A stretch of DNA of 64,000 nucleotides from Patescibacteria group bacterium. Lineage in GTDB: Bacteria; Patescibacteriota; Patescibacteriia; 2-12-FULL-60-25. Numbering within the stretch: the stretch's first letter is position 1; each line of letters opens with the position of its first letter. The notes under the pieces were generated by a model. The model was not told the origin of the DNA. It did no database searches and saw only the letters and a list, made by a program, of their open reading frames with translations. Of the stretch, positions 3,863 to 54,615 are shown in pieces. The stretch covers positions 15,327-79,326 of the forward strand of contig JARGGJ010000004.1 in assembly GCA_029210915.1 (NCBI GenBank), in the 5' to 3' direction. The position numbers and the translations under genes were made by a program.

Positions 3863-3942
3863 AGATGCGTAGCTATCATATCATAATAGCAATCAAAAAA
3901 GAACGCGTTTTATACGTTCATTGTGCATAAAATTACCTGCCA

Positions 3943-3976
3943 CGAACTACGAATTTCGAACTACGAACTACGAATT
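3943..3976. repeat. Tandem cgaactacgaa(ttt) units (intergenic copy)
   Basis: cgaactacgaatttcgaactacgaactacgaattt. The same family occurs at 47088-47163 (in leuS) and 51387-51426 (in dinB). Confidence 0.9.
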
Positions 3977-4451: not shown

Positions 4452-4588
4452 ACAAACTTATTATATCATAATGAAAGAATAACCAATAACCAAACTCCAA
4501 TAACCAATCAATCACCAATAATCAAATTCCAATCACCAATTAATTTCCGATAAACAATTTAAAAAAACTCCAAAAACCACTATTACGA

Positions 4589-4664
4589 CCCCCTTTAGCA
4601 AAGGGGGATAATTACACAAAGTGTAATTTGGGGGATTTCCGAAAGCCCCCTTTATGAAAGGGGG
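4589..4664. repeat. Cluster of GC-rich palindromic elements (intergenic)
   Basis: CCCCCTTTAGCAAAGGGGG, AATTACACaaaGTGTAATT, GGGGGATTTCCGAAAGCCCCC, CCCCCTTTATGAAAGGGGG. Lies between the vanW-like stop and the hsp20 start. Confidence 0.9.
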
Positions 4665-7227: not shown

Positions 7228-7443
7228 CGCTTCTTGATTGAATGTTCAGTTGATTATGTTTTATATCACGATTTAGTGTTTGTGTCAAGGGTTTGTGCTT
7301 GTATAACGTTGTTTAAAAGCCAACGATGACAAATGACGTCTTGCCGTATGCAAGACGTATTAAGGTACACCAAAAGTATCTCATGCGTTCAGGGGTGCGT
7401 CAAGACTCTAATATTGGCTTATTTTAGCTAAAAAACAAAATGG

Positions 7444-7612
7444 TTTGTAAAGTTAAAAGTTTATAAAGTTTGTAAAGTATAAGTGGACAGAACTTGTAGA
7501 TTTTCAATTATGTCAATCAAGCCAAAAATAACTAATTCTTCAAGAGTGACTTCAAGCCTCTCTTTATGAACTTGTTACTTTATGAACTTTATAAACTTTA
7601 TGAACTTGTTTA
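7444..7612. repeat. ataaagtt/aactttat-family hairpin downstream of smc
   Basis: tttgtaaagttaaaagtttataaagtttgtaaag ... ctttatgaactttataaactttatgaacttgtttac. Siblings at 16705-16813 and 38121-38175. Confidence 0.9.
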
Positions 7613-16704: not shown

Positions 16705-16813
16705 TCAGTTCATAAAGTTTGTAAAGTTCATAAAGTTCATAAAGTTTGTAAAGTGGTTATGATGGGTTGATTGGCTTTATGAACTTTATGAACTTTTAAC
16801 TTTACAAACTGAT
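16705..16813. repeat. ataaagtt-family hairpin between ruvC and the MBL-fold gene
   Basis: atcagttcataaagtttgtaaagttcataaagttcataaag ... ctttatgaactttatgaacttttaactttacaaactgat. Confidence 0.9.
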
Positions 16814-16895: not shown

Positions 16896-17405
16896 TTATT
16901 TGATTGATTTGTGTCTTTTTTGGTTGGTTTGATAAGTGAGGCCTCCGGCGATAGCGATGGCCAGTGCGTCGGCGGCGTCGTCCGGTTTGGGCGTTTCTGT
17001 GAGACACAGCAGGCGCGTGACCATGTACTCGATTTGCTTTTTATCGGCAGCGCCATGGCCGGCAACCGTTTGTTTGATTTCGTTTGGGGTGAGCTCAACC
17101 GTTGGAAGATTGGCATCAGCCAAAGCAAGGAGAATGACACCGCGTGCCATGCCAACGTTTATTGCAGTTTTGACGTTGCTTTGAAAAAAGAGATGCTCTA
17201 CGGACGCTACATCCGGATTAAACCTGCGGATAGCTTCCGTTAAATCATTGCGGACGGTTTGCAGACGCTCTGTAAATGGAGCGTCGGATGGTGTATCGAT
17301 GCAAGAATGCCAAACGTGAGTTAATTTGGAATTTTTTATATCGATGATTCCAAGGCCGGTACGGCCAAAACCCGGGTCGATGCCGAGGATTCGGAAATCC
17401 CCCAA
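16896..17405 (-). CDS. ruvC: Holliday junction resolvase RuvC
   Basis: FRILGIDPGFGRTGLGII... is the typical RuvC core. The track ORF (ATG 17543) adds about 46 residues encoded by three palindromic elements and overlaps the yebC stop. Alternative starts are the in-frame TTG at 17405 (MGDFRILGIDPG) or the ATG at 17453. The C-terminal residues run into a ggttat repeat. Confidence 0.85.
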   Translation of the reverse strand: MGDFRILGIDPGFGRTGLGIIDIKNSKLTHVWHSCIDTPSDAPFTERLQTVRNDLTEAIRRFNPDVASVEHLFFQSNVKTAINVGMARGVILLALADANLPTVELTPNEIKQTVAGHGAADKKQIEYMVTRLLCLTETPKPDDAADALAIAIAGGLTYQTNQKRHKSIK

Positions 17406-17408
17406 TCC

Positions 17409-17495
17409 GACGCTTTGCGTCGAATGTCCCCCTTTGACGAGGGGGCTATTCATGCAATTGCACTTTGCGTGATTATCCCTCTTTGCTAAAGAGGG
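17409..17495. repeat. Three palindromic elements between yebC and the ruvC core
   Basis: GACGCtttGCGTC, CCCCCTTTGACGAGGGGG, CCCTCTTTGCTAAAGAGGG. Confidence 0.9.
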
Positions 17496-17532
17496 TAGCT
17501 TGTAGACTTGGTCTGTCGCGTGTGACTGAGCG

Positions 17533-35192: not shown

Positions 35193-35207
35193 GTTCTGTT
35201 TTTGTTC
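35193..35207. promoter_or_regulatory. Candidate LexA operator (SOS box) upstream of recA: GTTC-N7-GTTC on the plus strand
   Basis: gttGTTCtgtttttGTTCtataac. Its reverse complement ttataGAACaaaaacaGAACaac matches the lexA-upstream site at all but one position from TTATAGAAC through the second GAAC. Confidence 0.6.
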
Positions 35208-38069: not shown

Positions 38070-38122
38070 CGTTTATAACCCCATTATTCAACGGGGCAGG
38101 CCGTTTGTAACGTTTATAACGA
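38070..38122. repeat. Conserved 45-50-nt motif upstream of the M23 gene (partner upstream of leuS)
   Basis: cgtttataaCCCCattattcaaCGGGGcaggccgtttgtaacgtttataacgag versus 49358-49402 acgtttataaCCCCGTTatgcAACGGGGcaggctgtttataacgag. Both lie about 65-115 nt 5-prime of a minus-strand ATG. Confidence 0.85.
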
Positions 38123-38186
38123 GTTTATAAAGTTTGTAAAGTTGAAAGTTTGTAAGGTTGAAAGTTTGTAAGGTTATTAAAGAGTG

Positions 38187-46636: not shown

Positions 46637-49294
46637 TTAAATTACAATGTTTAGAATTCTGCCGGGAACATAGATAACTTTTTTCGGCTCAGTACCATCT
46701 AAATACTTTTTCACATTCTCATCTTGCATAGCTGCTTCCATAGCCTCGGACTCTTTAGCATCGGGCGCGATTGTGATTTCACCGCGGACTTTGCCGTTAA
46801 TTTGGACGCCGAGGGTAATTGTATCTTCGATGAGCAAATCCGGATTGTAAGTTGGCCAAGCTTCCAAGTGGATTGATGATTCGTTGCCAAAATTGTGCCA
46901 GATTTGTTCGGCGATATGTGGAGCGAAAGGCGCTATCAATTTAAGATACGTTTTATAATCATCATCCGTGACTGATTCGGATTCGAGGAGAGTGTTAGTT
47001 AAGATCATGAGTTGCGAAATAGCTGTGTTGAAGCGCATCGCATCGATATCGTCGCCGACTTTTTTGATGGACTTGTGTAAGATTGATTCGTATTTCGTAT
47101 TTCGTATTTCGAATTTCGCGTCCGAAGGATTCGTTGTTCGTAATTCGTCGTTCGTAGTTCGAGTTTGATGGAGTGACCAGATTTTATCCAGGAAGCGTTT
47201 GATGCCTTGGATGCCGTGGGTATCCCAAGGAGCGTCCGTATCAAATGGACCCATAAACATTTCGTAGCAACGAAAAACATCGGATCCGTATTCGGAGATG
47301 ACATCATCCGGATTAACAACGTTACCTTTGGACTTAGACATCTTTATTCCACCCTCACCCAAGATCATGCCGTGAGCTGTGCGCTTGGCATAAGGCTCGA
47401 CTCCGCAAGACTCGGGGATGTGGCCCAAATCGTGTAAAACTTTGTACCAAAAGCGAGAGTATAGAAGGTGAAGAGTGGTGTGTTCCATGCCACCGTCGTA
47501 AAGATCAACGGGCATCCAATACTTGAGAGCTTCGGGTGACGCGAAGACTTGATCGTTTTCCGCATCACAATAGCGCAAGAAATACCAAGATGAGCCCGCC
47601 CAGTTGGGCATGGTATCGGTTTCGCGCTTGGCATTGCCTCCGCAAGCCGGGCAAGTAGTGTTTACCCAATCAATGATGACTGAAAGTGGTGATTCGCCGC
47701 TGTCGGTTGGTTCGTAGTTTTCGACATCCGGAAGAAGAATCGGAAGTTCCGACTCTGCGACAGGTTGCCAACCGCATTTTTCACAATGAATCATCGGAAT
47801 CGGCTCGCCCCAATAACGCTGGCGAGAAAAAACCCAATCACGTTGTTTGTAATTTGTGCAACCATGGCCGGCGCCATGCTCTTCGAGCCAAGCAACTATT
47901 TTTTCTTGAGATTTATCAGTTGTGAGATCGTTTAAAAATTCGGAGTTAATGGAAATGCCCTCACCTATCCAGCATTCTGATTCGACTCTAACATCTTCTT
48001 GAGAGACCGGCGTAATATTGGCCGGAGGATGAGAAAGTTCAGCTAGAGCCGGAGGCACTACCACCTTAATAATGGGTAACTCGAATTTTTTGGCGAATTC
48101 ATAATCCCGTTCATCGTGAGCGGGAACGGCCATGATGGCACCCGTGCCGTAGCCCGCCAAGACATAGTCGGCGATCCATACGGGCACTTCTTTGCCGGTT
48201 GCTGGGTTCACGGCTTTTAGACCATGGATCTCTACTCCGGTTTTTTCTTTATTTTCCTGGCGTTCACGATCTGATTTTTTGCGAGTTGTTTCTTGATAAT
48301 CTTTTACTTCTTTTATATTTTCTATTGCATCATGATCGATCCACGAGGTTAAAAGTGGATGCTCGGGTGAGAGAACCAAGTATGTTGCACCAAAAAGGGT
48401 ATCGGGGCGGGTTGTAAAAACTTCTATCTCGTCTATGGTCCTATGTACATGGTCCTGGCTTTGGTTTTGAGTAATTGCAAATTTTATGAGAGCTCCTTCG
48501 GAGCGGCCGATCCAGTTGATTTGCTGGGTTTTTATCTTATCGAGATAATTAACATCTGAGAGTTCATCGATAAGGCGGTTGGCGTATTTGGTTATACGCA
48601 TCATCCATTGTTCTTTTTCGCGCTTTTCAACCTCACCTCCACAACGCTCGCAAACTCCGCCTTGCGCTTCTTCGTTTGATAAACCGATTTTGCAGGCCGG
48701 GCACCAGTTGATTGTTGTGGTGGTTTTATATACGATGCGTTTTGAATCTCTATAATTGCGAATTGCCAAGTCACCATCTTTTTGAATTTCGGCGGGGATC
48801 TCGAGTTCGGTTATAGGACGAGCCTTCTGCAATGATTCATCAAAATAGGCATTGTAGAATTGAATGAACATCCATTGAGTCCATTTGTAATATTTGGGAT
48901 CTGTTGTGTTGATTTCGCGCGACCAATCAAAACCGGTTCCGAGCGATTGGGTTTGACGTTTAAAAGTTGCGACGTTCTTCTCGGTGATTATGGCCGGTTG
49001 CATCTTTTTCTTGATAGCAGCGTTTTCCGTTGGTAAACCAAAAGCATCCCAACCGATGGGGTACATTACATTTAAACCCTCCATGCGTTTTTTACGGGAG
49101 ACTATATCCAGAGCCGTGTAAGATCGCGGATGGCCAACATGCAGGCCATCGCCCGATGGATATGGGAACTCGACCAGAGTGTAAAACTTTTTATCTTTGG
49201 TATCTGATGGTTGTTTTGCGTGATAAATTCCATTATCTTCCCACCATTTTTGCCATTTTTGTTCGATATCTTGAAAAGGGTATTTGTTTGCCAT
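46637..49294 (-). CDS. leuS: Leucine--tRNA ligase, with two repeat-derived in-frame insertions
   Basis: 885 aa. HIGH motif (GLHVGHPRSY), KMSKSKGN, CP1 editing domain (TTRPDTLFGATY). The segments TRTTNDELRTTNPSDAKFEIRNTKYES and QNQSQDHVHRT are encoded by repeat families also found intergenically. Confidence 0.97.
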   Translation of the reverse strand: MANKYPFQDIEQKWQKWWEDNGIYHAKQPSDTKDKKFYTLVEFPYPSGDGLHVGHPRSYTALDIVSRKKRMEGLNVMYPIGWDAFGLPTENAAIKKKMQPAIITEKNVATFKRQTQSLGTGFDWSREINTTDPKYYKWTQWMFIQFYNAYFDESLQKARPITELEIPAEIQKDGDLAIRNYRDSKRIVYKTTTTINWCPACKIGLSNEEAQGGVCERCGGEVEKREKEQWMMRITKYANRLIDELSDVNYLDKIKTQQINWIGRSEGALIKFAITQNQSQDHVHRTIDEIEVFTTRPDTLFGATYLVLSPEHPLLTSWIDHDAIENIKEVKDYQETTRKKSDRERQENKEKTGVEIHGLKAVNPATGKEVPVWIADYVLAGYGTGAIMAVPAHDERDYEFAKKFELPIIKVVVPPALAELSHPPANITPVSQEDVRVESECWIGEGISINSEFLNDLTTDKSQEKIVAWLEEHGAGHGCTNYKQRDWVFSRQRYWGEPIPMIHCEKCGWQPVAESELPILLPDVENYEPTDSGESPLSVIIDWVNTTCPACGGNAKRETDTMPNWAGSSWYFLRYCDAENDQVFASPEALKYWMPVDLYDGGMEHTTLHLLYSRFWYKVLHDLGHIPESCGVEPYAKRTAHGMILGEGGIKMSKSKGNVVNPDDVISEYGSDVFRCYEMFMGPFDTDAPWDTHGIQGIKRFLDKIWSLHQTRTTNDELRTTNPSDAKFEIRNTKYESILHKSIKKVGDDIDAMRFNTAISQLMILTNTLLESESVTDDDYKTYLKLIAPFAPHIAEQIWHNFGNESSIHLEAWPTYNPDLLIEDTITLGVQINGKVRGEITIAPDAKESEAMEAAMQDENVKKYLDGTEPKKVIYVPGRILNIVI
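47088..47163. repeat. ttcgta/ttcgtagttcg tandem units inside leuS
   Basis: ttcgtatttcgtatttcgtatttcgaatttcgcgtccgaaggattcgttgttcgtaattcgtcgttcgtagttcgag, in frame. Confidence 0.9.
48437..48471. repeat. gtacatggtcctgg-family element inside leuS
   Basis: ggtcctatgtacatggtcctggctttggttttgag. About 25 nt are near-identical to 53486-53516. Confidence 0.9.
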
Positions 49295-50788: not shown

Positions 50789-52252
50789 TCAGTTGCCGGA
50801 GACTTGGACATCGACACCTTCGGTTTTGCGGAAGCCGATGCGGTCGGGGGCGTAATCGGAGCTTAAGCCCATCATGGAGGCAAAGATGATGGATTCCTCG
50901 CCGTGGCGGTCGCGGATGGCGTCGATACAATCCCCCAATTCGAGACCATGTCTCGAATATCCCCCTTTGACAAGGGGGCTTTTAAGAGAATATTTGAGTT
51001 GGAGTTGATGATTGGGTGGGACCAAGTCGGACAGAGTTATGGCGAGGAAGGTTACTTGTTCGCCCTGCCAGATTTGTTCCAGCACTTGCGTAGCCGCATG
51101 AACCAAACTGAAAGGATCGTTGGCAGGGTCGACAAACTTAACCGTTTGGCTCAAACCCACCCCAAACCCCTCCCTTGTCAAGGAGGGACTTGTTTCACTG
51201 CTTCCCCCTGACAAGGGGGAGTGAGGGGGTTTGAACGAAGCTTGGATGGTCATGGTGCGGGCGTAATGACCGAAGCTTCTAAGGCGGCGGCCGGCGCGTT
51301 CGGTGAGGCGGATTAGGATTGGCAGAATCAGGTTTTGTTCATTAGCGCGTTTGGGGACGCAGAAGGAGTGACCGACGGACTTAGGGATCGAACTACGAAC
51401 CTCGAACGACGAACTACGATTTTCGGAGTCGAAGTTCTGAGTGTCGTCGCTCGTCGCTCGTCCCACGTCGCTCGCCAGAGGAGATTGTTCGAAGCGGTCG
51501 ATTTCTTGGCCGCTTAGGCGCTCGTGCCAGTAGTAGCCGGCAACTCCCAAGGCGCGGATTAGGTTGCCTACTGGATAGTTTTTTAAGTCGAGGAGATTAT
51601 AGATGCCAAGAAGGTTTAAGCGGCGGCGGATGCGTTTGCCGATTCCGCAGGCGTCCTCGAGGTCGCGGGTGGCGAGTGTAGCATCTAAATTTTCGCGGTT
51701 GATGATTGTAAGGCCGTTGGGTTTTTTTATTTCTGAAGCGAGTTTTGCGAGGAACTTGCTGGGCGCGATACCAACAGAGCATGTGAGCCACTCGCCCACT
51801 TCGGATTGAATGCGCATGCGCGCACGGCAAAGTGCCCAAGAAGCCTCGGCTTCGTCGCGGTACCAGCCGGTTAGATCTAAAAAGACTTCGTCTATAGAGT
51901 AGTGCTCCACCTTGTCTGTAAGTTCGTGGAAAAGGGAAAAGACACGCGAGCTGACGGCGCGATATTTAGCCGGATCGTTTTGGATAAATTTCATTTGCGG
52001 GCAAACTTTTTTTGCGATTTCCATACTCATACCAACTTTGACTCCGCACTTTTTAGCTTCGACAGAGGCGGCAATGACACAGCCGGCTTTGTGCAGATAA
52101 GCGCAGACACCCAAAGGACGCCCGCGAAGCTGGGGGTTTGCCTGCTGTTCAACGCTGGCGAAGTAGGAGTTCATGTCGATGTGACTGTATAACTTTCGTC
52201 GCACGTCACTCGTCCTACGTCCCACGTTGGGTGATTTGAGTGTTATCGGCAT
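50789..52252 (-). CDS. dinB: Y-family DNA polymerase IV, expanded by several in-frame repeat insertions
   Basis: HIDMNSYFASVEQ, SIDEVFLDL, IAPSKFLAKLASEIKKPNG, HhH GIGKRIRRRLN. 487 aa versus about 350-400 typical. The extra segments coincide exactly with repeat elements. Confidence 0.88.
   Translation of the reverse strand: MPITLKSPNVGRRTSDVRRKLYSHIDMNSYFASVEQQANPQLRGRPLGVCAYLHKAGCVIAASVEAKKCGVKVGMSMEIAKKVCPQMKFIQNDPAKYRAVSSRVFSLFHELTDKVEHYSIDEVFLDLTGWYRDEAEASWALCRARMRIQSEVGEWLTCSVGIAPSKFLAKLASEIKKPNGLTIINRENLDATLATRDLEDACGIGKRIRRRLNLLGIYNLLDLKNYPVGNLIRALGVAGYYWHERLSGQEIDRFEQSPLASDVGRATSDDTQNFDSENRSSSFEVRSSIPKSVGHSFCVPKRANEQNLILPILIRLTERAGRRLRSFGHYARTMTIQASFKPPHSPLSGGSSETSPSLTREGFGVGLSQTVKFVDPANDPFSLVHAATQVLEQIWQGEQVTFLAITLSDLVPPNHQLQLKYSLKSPLVKGGYSRHGLELGDCIDAIRDRHGEESIIFASMMGLSSDYAPDRIGFRKTEGVDVQVSGN
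50961..50978. repeat. GC-rich palindrome inside dinB (encodes SPLVKGG)
   Basis: CCCCCTTTGACAAGGGGG. Confidence 0.9.
51164..51233. repeat. Compound GC-rich palindromic element inside dinB
   Basis: CAAACCCCTC-CCTTGTCAAGGAGGG-...-CCCCCTGACAAGGGGG-AGTGAGGGGGTTTG. It encodes KPPHSPLSGGSSETSPSLTREGFGVG in frame. Confidence 0.9.
51387..51476. repeat. Two adjacent low-complexity tandem elements inside dinB
   Basis: atcgaactacgaacctcgaacgacgaactacgattttcgg, then gtcgtcgctcgtcgctcgtcccacgtcgctcgcc. A relative of the second (tcgtcgcacgtcactcgtcctacgtcccacg) sits at 52197-52231 in the dinB 5-prime end. Confidence 0.9.
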
Positions 52253-53226: not shown

Positions 53227-53472
53227 TTACAGTATCGCCATTTCTTCCAACTCCCACTTTAGTGTTTCGGTATAAAAACGCAGACGAAAAGCATTTGCCT
53301 TATCGGTGACGGAATAGATGTACATTTTGTTGCGGCCTTGGCGCTCGGTGTGGACGAGGTTGACCGAGGTGATGCGGTAGTAGCGATTGTTCCACTTAAA
53401 AATCACAGGCTCTGCTCGATCCTGCCTAAACGTAGCTATAACGTCTACGGGTTCTCCAATGTGGCTATACAT
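53227..53472 (-). CDS. Small hypothetical protein (81 aa) in the lexA-dinB operon
   Basis: MYSHIGEPVDVIATFRQDRAEPVIFKWNNRYYRITSVNLVHTERQG... The track start at 53496 lies in a repeat and was trimmed. No family recognised. Confidence 0.5.
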   Translation of the reverse strand: MYSHIGEPVDVIATFRQDRAEPVIFKWNNRYYRITSVNLVHTERQGRNKMYIYSVTDKANAFRLRFYTETLKWELEEMAIL

Positions 53473-53882
53473 ATTGGTACATGGTCCTGGGTACATGGTC
53501 CTGGCTTTGGCTTGAGTTGCCCTAGTTGTTCTCTTGTTCTTAGGGAGGTGATGAATCCTGCTAGAACTTTATTTATTCTTAATGATAAATTGCGCAATTC
53601 CTCAGCCAGCTCTTTGCTAATGTATTCGCGATCTTCCCCAAGATAAAGCAACGATCTAACTTCTGCACATGAACCTTTTGAAATTATTAAAAATCTTGCA
53701 AATTCCTTATCCCCCTTACGATCAAATCCTTCTGCAATATTGTTCATTATAGACATGCACGCTCTTTCTATCTGGTCTTTGTATGACCAATCCCGGCAAT
53801 TTTTAATCTCGCTATGTATGCGATTTGATAATTCACGTGCTAGTTGCCAGGCGATGATATCTTCGAATTTTTCTATGCTCAT
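53445..53882 (-). CDS. Four-helix-bundle protein (23S rRNA intervening-sequence protein family)
   Basis: FEDIIAWQLARELSNRI...MSIMNNIAEGFDRKGDKEFARFLIISKGSCAEVRSLL is the family signature. The last 30 or so residues are read from the gtacatggtcctgg repeat, so the true C-terminus is uncertain. Confidence 0.8.
   Translation of the reverse strand: MSIEKFEDIIAWQLARELSNRIHSEIKNCRDWSYKDQIERACMSIMNNIAEGFDRKGDKEFARFLIISKGSCAEVRSLLYLGEDREYISKELAEELRNLSLRINKVLAGFITSLRTREQLGQLKPKPGPCTQDHVPICIATLENP
53476..53516. repeat. gtacatggtcctgg-family element (overlaps the 4HB gene end and the orf81 start)
   Basis: ggtacatggtcctgggtacatggtcctggctttggcttgag. Confidence 0.9.
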
Positions 53883-53891
53883 ATACTTAAA

Positions 53892-53960
53892 GTCCTGGGT
53901 ACATGGTCCTGAGTCCTGGCTCCGATCGAAGCCAGGACCATGTACCCAGGACCATGTACG
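53892..53960. repeat. gtacatggtcctgg-family hairpin between lexA and the 4HB gene
   Basis: gtcctgggtacatggtcctgagtcctggct-ccgatcga-agccaggaccatgtacccaggaccatgtac. The arms are complementary. Confidence 0.9.
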
Positions 53961-53967
53961 ATTAAGT

Positions 53968-54576
53968 CTATCCGAATTTACGTATGACAGCCTTAACAGT
54001 CCCTTGAATCACCGGGTCGTAACAGTAAATTGGTTTCATGGTGGAGTTTGCCGGTTGGAGGCGGATGCGGTCGCGCTCGCGGTAGAAGCGTTTTAGGGTG
54101 GCGTAGGCGTTATCGAGAAGCGCGACGACCACATCGCCGTTTTTGGGTGATGGATTGCGCTCGACTACGACGTAATCGCCGTCGAAGATGCCATCTTCGA
54201 TCATGGATTGGCCTTTGACGCGGAGTACGTAGGAGTTGGCGGAGTTGGGCGCGAGATCTACGGGGATGGCGATTGTTTCGTGCTCCTCGACAGCCTCGAT
54301 TGGTACGCCGGCAGTGATTAAGCCGGCTAAAGGGAGCATAATGCTTTTACCCCAGCGCACCGCTTTATCGGTAGGCTCGAGCTCGCGCGCGGCACCGCCG
54401 GCTTTTAAGAAGCCGCGCGAACGCAAAGCTTGAATGTGCACGTGCACAGTTGAGGGAGAAGCGAGGTTTAGGCCATCTGCGATTTCGCGAAATGATGGAG
54501 CGTATCCGCGATCGTTAATGAAGTCGATGATGAAATCGAGGACTTCTTTTTGCTTGGGAGTTAATGGCTGCAACAT
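53968..54576 (-). CDS. lexA: SOS repressor LexA
   Basis: wHTH N-terminus (LTPKQKEVLDFIIDFINDRGYAPSFREIA), Ala-Gly cleavage region (LAGLITAGVP), Ser in VKGQSM, Lys in ATLKRF. The track TTG start at 54606 overlaps the operator and was trimmed to the ATG at 54576. Confidence 0.93.
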   Translation of the reverse strand: MLQPLTPKQKEVLDFIIDFINDRGYAPSFREIADGLNLASPSTVHVHIQALRSRGFLKAGGAARELEPTDKAVRWGKSIMLPLAGLITAGVPIEAVEEHETIAIPVDLAPNSANSYVLRVKGQSMIEDGIFDGDYVVVERNPSPKNGDVVVALLDNAYATLKRFYRERDRIRLQPANSTMKPIYCYDPVIQGTVKAVIRKFG

Positions 54577-54600
54577 ATAAATATTTGTGAGAGGGTTATA

Positions 54601-54615
54601 GAACAAAAATAGAAC
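54601..54615. promoter_or_regulatory. Candidate LexA operator (SOS box) upstream of lexA: GAAC-N7-GAAC
   Basis: ttataGAACaaaaataGAACgaa, 25 nt upstream of the lexA ATG. It overlaps the -10 and spacer of the TTGACC-17-TATTTT promoter candidate read on the minus strand. Confidence 0.6.

Follow-up and report, generated by a model that had tools for sequence, protein, structure and literature searches.

Repeat-derived segments in frame at four variable sites of a DinB-like DNA polymerase gene in a Patescibacteria genome

Introduction

Among the described cases of repeat DNA within bacterial genes, the Rickettsia palindromic elements (RPEs) are in-frame palindromic repeats in proteins (Ogata et al. 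2000, 2002, as summarized in the review PMC10969869). The same review cites intragenic insertions of ERIC and MITE elements that make in-frame fusions (Delihas 2007, cited in PMC10969869). REP and REPIN elements occur with REP-associated tyrosine transposases (PMC3116915, PMC3337134), and heptameric repeats have been reported as over-represented, arranged in inverted pairs and rapidly varying between species, with slippage as the hypothesis for their origin (PMC4692102). The present work concerns a stretch of 64,000 nucleotides (nt) from a Patescibacteria group bacterium (GCA_029210915.1, contig JARGGJ010000004.1, positions 15,327 to 79,326, forward strand), which is called the window below and numbered from its first letter. 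In this window, the gene of a DinB-like Y-family DNA polymerase (50789..52252, minus strand) contains repeat DNA at four sites and stays in frame. The genomes of Patescibacteria are among the smallest and most streamlined in bacteria. Even so, the intergenic DNA examined here consists in large part of short repeats, which also form parts of DinB, leucyl-tRNA synthetase (LeuRS), HflX and TatD.

Results

The polymerase gene is intact

The dinB open reading frame (ORF) encodes 487 amino acids (aa) without internal stops. The Y-family catalytic domain IMS (PF00817, palm/finger/thumb) was found at residues 25-174 (E=1e-44) and the little-finger domain IMS_C (PF11799) at residues 290-419 (E=5e-12). 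The Pol IV, Dpo4 and Dbh sequences of the PDB matched with E values of 1e-39 to 1e-31 and alignments ending near residue 265, and DinB/Dpo4/Dbh structures were retrieved by Foldseek with the AlphaFold model (E ~1e-26). The NCBIfam equivalog cut-offs for Pol IV (256-399 bits) were not reached, the best score being 206 bits, and these alignments ended at the insert in the linker (site ii, below). The best name for this polymerase is DinB-like.

The catalytic carboxylates D26 (in HIDM) and D121/E122 (in YSIDE) were present and invariant across a protein alignment of 29 orthologs. Between the window gene and five relatives, the ratio of nonsynonymous to synonymous substitution rates (dN/dS) of the core was 0.077-0.094 at dS of 0.8-1.3. 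In the four variable sites pN/pS was about 0.6-0.9, so that pN approached pS there and amino-acid change was neutral-like. Taken together, the open frame, the invariant catalytic residues and a core dN/dS of about 0.09 indicated that dinB is not decaying; the gene is intact and its core is under strong purifying selection. This agrees with a first-pass annotation of the window made from sequence alone, which had regarded the Pol IV core motifs as intact, and it contradicts the frameshifted or pseudogenized state that the annotation had named beforehand as the outcome that would speak against it.

The nearest database proteins were from Patescibacteria, several of them labelled Uhrbacteria, with lengths of 399-514 aa, and the locus titles of the relatives gave the same taxon. 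All 120 orthologs listed fell within that length range and carried both Pfam domains, and the frame was intact at all seven DNA loci examined (window and six close relatives). The exact window protein was absent from the public collection searched. The gene order lexA, small accessory genes, dinB, a 242-aa gene, an RRM protein gene and leuS was kept in the relatives. The excess length of 100-130 aa given by the first-pass annotation was borne out in comparison with E. coli DinB (~135 aa), but against repeat-poor orthologs of the same clade (399-445 aa) it shrank to about 50-90 aa, which is also the share of extra residues derived from repeats. The remaining excess over classical DinB is partly a clade-wide C-terminal region that does not consist of repeats.

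Length variation and repeats coincide at four sites

Orthologs were compared in the 29-sequence protein alignment, a length census of 120 orthologs and a DNA alignment with six close relatives. In the first two, length variation was concentrated at the same four sites, namely the N-terminal tail (site i), the linker from thumb to little finger (site ii), a hairpin loop of the little finger (site iii) and the segment before the C-terminal helix (site iv). The stretch before the catalytic Asp measured 0-56 aa among the 120 orthologs, with exactly 25 residues in seven proteins including that of the window. The linker was 6-8 aa long in 96 of the 105 orthologs with at most 67% identity, 10-48 aa in the 15 closest relatives and 35 aa in the window. 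The corresponding values were 6-49 aa for the little-finger loop (32 in the window) and 17-76 aa for the segment before the C-terminal helix (27 in the window). The peptide stretches SPLVKGGYSR, DVGRATSDDTQ, SPSLTREG and MPITLKSPNVGR were read at the repeat segments of the window protein.

At the DNA level, each of the six close relatives carried repeats at every site, often of another family, and one peptide or DNA motif could recur at different sites in different orthologs. The presence/absence polymorphism anticipated for each segment was therefore observed, together with replacement, at exactly these four sites. Judged from these alignments, the four sites are hot spots with turnover rather than the places of four one-off insertions.

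All four segments also occupied predicted loops or linkers, as had been expected from the first annotation. The AlphaFold model had a mean predicted local distance difference test score (pLDDT) of 70, and values below 50 were obtained for residues 1-16 (N-terminal tail, site i), 249-287 (between the last thumb helix, 237-246, and the first little-finger strand, 292-298; site ii), 345-364 (between strands 330-340 and 367-377; site iii) and 415-440 (between strand 400-411 and helix 435-460; site iv), besides three short stretches of the C-terminal helix and the tail 457-487.

Other peptides derived from repeats, among them VIPAKAGIH, VIPDVIGDPENR...MDSRFHGNDN, SPLVKGDLGDF and VHDVHHVHSVHSV, were present in more distant orthologs, at site iv in proteins P0019, P0024, P0030, P0031, P0034 and P0069 and at site iii in P0027 and P0032. 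The same loops thus serve further repeat families as hot spots in other lineages.

Sites i and ii consist of heptamer arrays

Site i (52196..52228, minus strand) is an array of about 4.4 heptamer units, GGGACGT-type in the sense direction, which encodes VGRRTSDVRR directly 5' of the conserved core. It comprises a 31-mer at 52196-52226, and Tandem Repeats Finder (TRF) delimited the array at 52197-52227 with period 7 and 4.4 copies. In the relatives the same site held arrays of GGACGTG, TTACATG, GTAATTC or GTACGAT units, and the units of one array differed all together between relatives. The first-pass annotation was right to place repeats before the HIDM motif; these form a tandem heptamer array and not a palindromic element, and may be coding only in part. 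An in-frame GTG (V17; 52202..52204, minus strand) lies within the array, has AGGA 8 nt upstream and could start a protein beginning MRRKLYSHIDM, and its position is equivalent to the MFAH starts of relatives. In loci L081, L083 and L001 the ATG (MFAH...) is located 3' of the array, which is leader sequence there, and L083 retains a remnant of the upstream MPPSLKSPDVGR start. In the window, L085, L002 and L003 the array is not followed by a start. The upstream ATG of L002 has no in-frame alternative and is directly preceded by the conserved motif GTTCTATTTTTGTTC. Translation in the window was judged likelier from the ATG at 52252 than from the GTG at V17. Because the equivalent array is 5' of the ATG in three relatives and the window has a GTG within its array, part of site i may be leader rather than coding sequence.

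Site ii (51387..51476, minus strand) is built of two inverted heptamer arrays, (GACGWGS)n and (TCGTAGT)n, separated by a 24-nt spacer, and adds about 28 aa to the linker. The period-7 arrays were located by TRF at 51388-51419 (CGAACTA) and 51444-51474 (TCGTCGC), and the two are 78-82% complementary in inverted orientation. Both repeat units and the approximate length of the peptide agreed with the first-pass annotation, although the units form tandem arrays of the simple-sequence-repeat type and not palindromic mobile elements. Like that of site i, these arrays are imperfect, with about 4-5 units and 75-84% matches. The motif CGAACTACGAA matched 16 times in the window compared with 1.1 expected, and one match (3943-3974) lies in an intergenic array (3942..3974, plus strand) of the ACGAACT unit as in the right arm of site ii. 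The GACGNNS unit family, which forms site i and the left arm of site ii, was restricted to dinB in the window and was intergenic in relatives.

The consensus of the right arm of site ii holds TAG. Both units in which this TAG would be in frame were mutated (TCG-TCG and TCG-ATC), while two units in a harmless phase kept it, and the same was seen in L083. Such a loss of TAG limited to in-frame units reads as a signature of selection for an open frame, which in turn suggests that the segment is translated.

Sites iii and iv consist of palindromic elements

Site iii (51159..51231, minus strand) encodes about 24 aa of the loop between strands beta2 and beta3 in the little-finger domain. Two C-rich/G-rich stems similar to hairpin A of site iv (below) were found at 51168-51187 and 51203-51220, within a longer inverted repeat of 25 nt (51159-51183 and 51206-51230), in accordance with the compound palindrome placed there by the earlier annotation. 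The predicted RNA fold reached -44 kcal/mol (z = -3.5), and only weak, partial matches to our model of the compound element (R1) were obtained.

A full compound element of about 49 nt forms site iv (50930..50978, minus strand), encodes SPLVKGGYSRHGLELGD and was the best match of model R1 (80.8 bits, E=5e-30). It is composed of hairpin A (C5-TTGTCAAA-G5-AT), hairpin B (ATTCGAGAC-ATG-GTCTCGAAT) and a G-rich tail, TGGGGGAT. The C5-N8-G5 hairpin at 50961-50978, which was all that had been noted before, was found and makes up the first third of this larger unit. The RNA fold of site iv was -23.9 kcal/mol (z = -3.2), whereas sites i and ii folded no better than shuffled sequences. The pattern counts of the dinB repeat motifs in the window were far above those of shuffled sequences. 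All four segments were therefore repeat DNA where the first annotation had placed them, and its statement that the families also occur in intergenic DNA held as well, for example at 3943-3974 and 4586-4664, with the GACGNNS family intergenic in relatives only.

The window contained three full and several partial compound elements in 64 kb according to model R1. Besides the copy within dinB, an intergenic element followed by a second hairpin A was detected at 4586..4664 (plus strand; 63.7 bits, fold z = -4.0), and two elements were detected at 17388..17505 (minus strand; 77.9 and 22.7 bits), directly 5' of the ruvC ORF or in its N-terminal extension. Thus one of the three full copies was inside an ORF and one abutted an ORF. 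The Pfam RuvC match begins at residue 52 of its ORF. The mechanically called ruvC ORF runs through both elements as SPLVKGGHSTQSVGLGDFR, and ruvC may in fact start at a TTG that lies in frame within GGATTGGGGGAT. Clusters of the element were tandem and direct. Further compound elements occurred in close relatives and none in about 75 more distant loci. An exact-pattern scan of metagenome contigs yielded five more copies, in a TatD gene, an HflX GTPase gene and a dinB ortholog and at two non-genic places, a sample too small for frame or orientation statistics. The TatD copy reads in another frame as TPSSKGDIQREALDWGIS, so that the coding copies were read in two different reading frames. In-frame palindromes at predicted surface-exposed positions, as known for RPEs, were thus found at sites iii and iv and in the TatD and HflX copies.

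In an alignment of 13 copies, seven of the nine pairs of hairpin B had changed on both sides and 94.7% of cells were paired, which no shuffle equalled; the exceptions were G-U/U-G on the sense strand. Rfam held no family for the hairpin elements, and the sole hits were chance matches to miRNA.

Among relatives, site iii was occupied by a compound palindrome (window and L001), a 14-mer array (L081), an AGGACGT array (L085), an AGGACGT array split by a 36-nt palindrome (L002) or a compound element (L083 and L003). Site iv held one compound element in the window, L083 and L002, and two in tandem, 54 nt apart, in L081 and L003. Palindromic pieces interrupted arrays in L001 and L002.

Introns and inteins were considered for the dinB segments and rejected, since the segments are 30-90 nt long, match no Rfam family and vary freely in sequence yet remain in frame.

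Heptamer arrays elsewhere in the window

The array census was performed with TRF on the 64-kb window and on Markov-shuffled copies. A total of 29 period-7 arrays was found, compared with about 0.8 per shuffled copy, and periods 8, 10 and 11 were not enriched. The heptamer arrays were largely intergenic and constituted much of the intergenic DNA of the window. Their units were diverse, with a mean GC fraction of 0.20 outside genes versus 0.45 inside ORFs. Of the 21 arrays that lie outside ORFs or only partly within them, none was stop-free on both strands. Inside ORFs, five of seven arrays had a stop-free sense consensus, and the exceptions were 2494-2508, whose 73-aa ORF is doubtful, and the right arm of dinB site ii, with its TAG. 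The window units (GACGWGS, CGAACTA, AATAACC and others) presumably differ from the cyanobacterial STRR units.

Two in-frame heptamer arrays (47087..47165, minus strand) were also identified in the LeuRS gene (46637-49294, minus strand), where they encode TRTTNDELRTTNPSDAKFEIRNTKYE in the part that separates the catalytic domain from the anticodon-binding domain. The editing domain contains a second variable site. At both LeuRS sites relatives differed in unit or length, and L085 had a different unit at the array site.

Intergenic heptamer arrays often formed adjacent inverted pairs, and many arrays began or ended 1-20 nt from a start or stop codon. Inverted pairs were seen at 10399-10465/10503-10558, 11532-11569/11579-11609, 28198-28229/28281-28318, 35099-35131/35152-35183 and 42285-42314/42374-42402. 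Period-9 arrays were enriched as well (13 versus about 1.5 expected) and formed inverted pairs in intergenic DNA; arrays of the units GTTTATAAA, CTTTATGAA and AGTTCATAA were located at 7443-7607, 16707-16804 and 38102-38143. Inverted arrays of the 14-mer GGTACATGGTCCTG and its complement (53476-53504 and 53932-53959) flank a 23S-rRNA-IVP-family gene (53445-53882), and the same 14-mer unit builds dinB site iii in L081. In distant Patescibacteria, loci L042, L045, L060, L080, L039, L025 and L024 had 8-17 period-7 arrays per 10 kb and many other loci had none, a patchy and lineage-specific spread.

The surroundings of dinB and lexA

The 15-mer GTTCTATTTTTGTTC, of the form GTTC-N7-GTTC, occurs at 54601-54615 (minus strand), just 5' of lexA (53968-54606), and with one mismatch at 35193-35207. 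This form is that of the alphaproteobacterial LexA box (PMC8565304). Of 90 fetched loci, 45 had the motif without change, 5' of either lexA or dinB. In L002 and L003 it sits immediately before the dinB ATG, and in L008 and L023 it is at most about 15 nt from the start of the match. A search for a LexA box immediately 5' of dinB in the window gave none. An SOS operator of Patescibacteria was reportedly described by Sanchez-Osuna et al. in 2017, and GTTCTATTTTTGTTC is probably that operator, as we assume. In one relative, an RVT_1 reverse transcriptase gene and a bAvd-type accessory gene, a pair typical of diversity-generating retroelements, were observed immediately upstream of dinB (L083:8251-9664, L084:3095-4508).

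Discussion

Origin of the segments

Our work indicated that the extra segments of this DinB are repeat DNA of the same genome. The explanation we favor, with a probability of about 0.62, is that this DNA, selfish or generated by slippage, is tolerated in four permissive loops and filtered for frame. Repeats of two kinds would have settled there, in the N-terminal tail, in a hairpin loop of the little finger and in two linkers, one joining the thumb to the little finger and one preceding the C-terminal helix. Replication slippage is the most likely source of the heptamer arrays and of their turnover; the units in one array would change together, and orthologous arrays consequently carry different units. 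The REP-like family of about 49 nt with two hairpins would spread as DNA and cluster in tandem, possibly by means of a REP-associated tyrosine transposase like the one encoded in a close relative. That candidate (L081:14848-15399, 183 aa) scored 81 bits in NCBIfam against a cut-off of 80 bits and is located between the RRM-protein gene and leuS, 3.4 kb from dinB, at a spot where the window has no such gene; no compound element was seen at its flanks. Selection on the host protein would retain only stop-free versions with a length that is a multiple of three, and the peptides translated from the retained repeats would be disordered and tolerated by the enzyme.

Several observations weigh against this explanation. 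Where segments were shared with a relative, they were better conserved than the third codon positions of the core (56-66% identical), with identities of 47/49 at site iv (L081), 62/74 (84%) at site iii (L001), 73/90 at site ii (L083) and 26/31 at site i (L085), which is not how purely neutral passengers would behave. The sharing was also mosaic, the partner being a different relative for each site. All coding copies of the compound element were sense-oriented, though antisense frames were often open. No transposase or homologue of the REP-associated enzymes was found in the 64-kb window, and neither terminal inverted repeats nor clear target duplications were seen at the flanks of the copies, where tandem clustering hides the junctions. 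Finally, we infer translation of the segments and do not observe it. The conservation, the sense bias and the stable folds of sites iii and iv leave room for selection on the hairpins, either for mobility of the element or in the mRNA, or for gene conversion. With regard to the sense bias itself, a constraint by stop codons was tried as its cause and rejected, as the antisense frame was open in 23 of 39 cases.

The strongest competitor, though considerably less probable than tolerated repeat DNA, is that the segments are kept as nucleic-acid structures, with hairpins in mRNA or single-stranded DNA regulating dinB by pausing translation at domain borders, by affecting how stable the mRNA is or how it is processed, or by attenuating an error-prone polymerase, and with the peptides as a by-product. 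The very stable hairpins of sites iii and iv, the covariation of hairpin B with its G-U/U-G exceptions on the sense strand, the conservation of shared elements above synonymous sites, the uniform orientation of coding copies and the location of the sites at domain borders all suit this idea. However, close relatives swap the elements for unrelated repeats or have none, distant orthologs are devoid of site ii, copies of the compound element lie between genes and within unrelated ones, the heptamer sites do not fold better than shuffles, and no Rfam family matches; the covariation, moreover, is equally expected if a transposase must recognize the hairpin. A somewhat smaller chance is given to the repeats being an actively maintained, lineage-wide system, exchanged by conversion, that is made of heptamer arrays and sense-oriented hairpin elements and tunes or switches expression of the error-prone polymerase and other genes or generates loop diversity in proteins, a view prompted by the nucleotide conservation above synonymous sites and the mosaic sharing between species.

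We consider it improbable that dinB is a phase-variable contingency gene in which one 7-nt unit gained or lost switches the polymerase off or on in the population. Seven is not a multiple of three, so slippage by a single unit at site i or ii would truncate the protein before the little finger; the arrays do turn over between species, and heptamer slippage has been proposed (PMC4692102). Against this, the arrays are short and imperfect, which lowers slippage, all 120 listed orthologs (399-514 aa) had both domains and all seven DNA loci examined were in frame, and similar arrays are present in the essential LeuRS, where switching off would be lethal. Neither the long perfect tract in an ORF nor the frameshifted alleles of a contingency locus were seen for the dinB arrays in these sequences. 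It is just as unlikely that the peptides are functional additions, for instance linkers that provide flexibility or motifs for interaction, by which lesion bypass or the binding of partners would be tuned in these reduced genomes. Lengthening the linker between thumb and little finger could alter how the latter is positioned, as is established from linker swaps between Dpo4 and Dbh, and structures of Dpo4/Dbh chimeras were among the PDB matches of the window protein; all six close relatives, at the DNA level, also keep something at each site. The relaxed pN/pS in the segments, the unrelated sequences at the same site in close relatives, the predicted disorder and the start of translation after the site i array in three relatives speak for a lack of function instead. 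An assembly artefact or a decaying pseudogene is hardly credible. Repeats can confuse assemblers and this exact protein was not in the collection searched, but the frame is open, the catalytic residues are invariant, dN/dS is about 0.09, and the same architecture was found in many independent assemblies, including contigs of 1.3-1.4 Mb.

If repeat DNA is tolerated in these loops as we propose, the locus would be a second, independent case of the Rickettsia type in another lineage with reduced genomes. It also provides a natural map of the tolerance of a Y-family polymerase for 10-50 extra residues, and a warning for annotation, as proteins of outlying length and strange low-complexity peptides in these genomes derive from repeats. 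Given the excess conservation of shared elements at the nucleotide level, the question arises whether it is the element, the mRNA or the protein that the hairpins serve.

Comparison with known systems

The first-pass annotation had compared all four segments with RPEs, and the resemblance was confirmed for sites iii and iv and not for sites i and ii. Like RPEs, the palindromes described here lie in frame in unrelated housekeeping genes of a small genome, at positions compatible with the fold, and also occur in intergenic DNA. They are set apart by their description, being about 49 nt long (RPEs, ~100-150 bp) with two hairpins, a G-rich tail and a tandem tendency, and further by the different phylum, a presumably unrelated sequence, the several families in one gene and the repeated replacement at the same sites. 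With REP and REPIN elements, the compound element shares a short, imperfectly palindromic, dispersed and clustered nature, a gene above the transposase cut-off in a close relative, and compensatory hairpin changes that fit hairpin recognition. REP elements, however, are mostly extragenic and form inverted doublets, whereas compound elements are tandem and direct and many are translated. Small repeats with open frames extend host proteins here as in the ERIC/MITE fusions covered by the review, but terminal inverted repeats and target-site duplications were not definable for the compound element.

The arrays of sites i and ii are closer to the heptanucleotide repeats (cyanobacterial STRR; GGGAATC-type of Xanthomonas and Nostoc, PMC4692102), with which they share 7-base units, over-representation, a mainly intergenic location, frequent inverted pairs and large variation among close relatives. 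Unlike the repeats of that study, the window units vary widely and few are rich in G; the arrays adjoin start and stop codons, and several are translated within the conserved proteins DinB and LeuRS. Elhai et al. (2008, cited in PMC3116915) are said to have described very small palindromic mobile repeats of Nostoc punctiforme that insert within heptameric arrays. Palindromes likewise split an array in L001 and L002, although the phylum is another one and the window element is about twice as long as those are said to be. In the literature searched, there was no report linking heptamer, palindromic or REPIN repeats with Patescibacteria, nor of heptamer arrays translated in conserved enzymes or of this two-hairpin element. 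In-frame palindromic elements and the over-representation of heptamers are thus already known, and the types of repeat and the phylum in which they occur are new.

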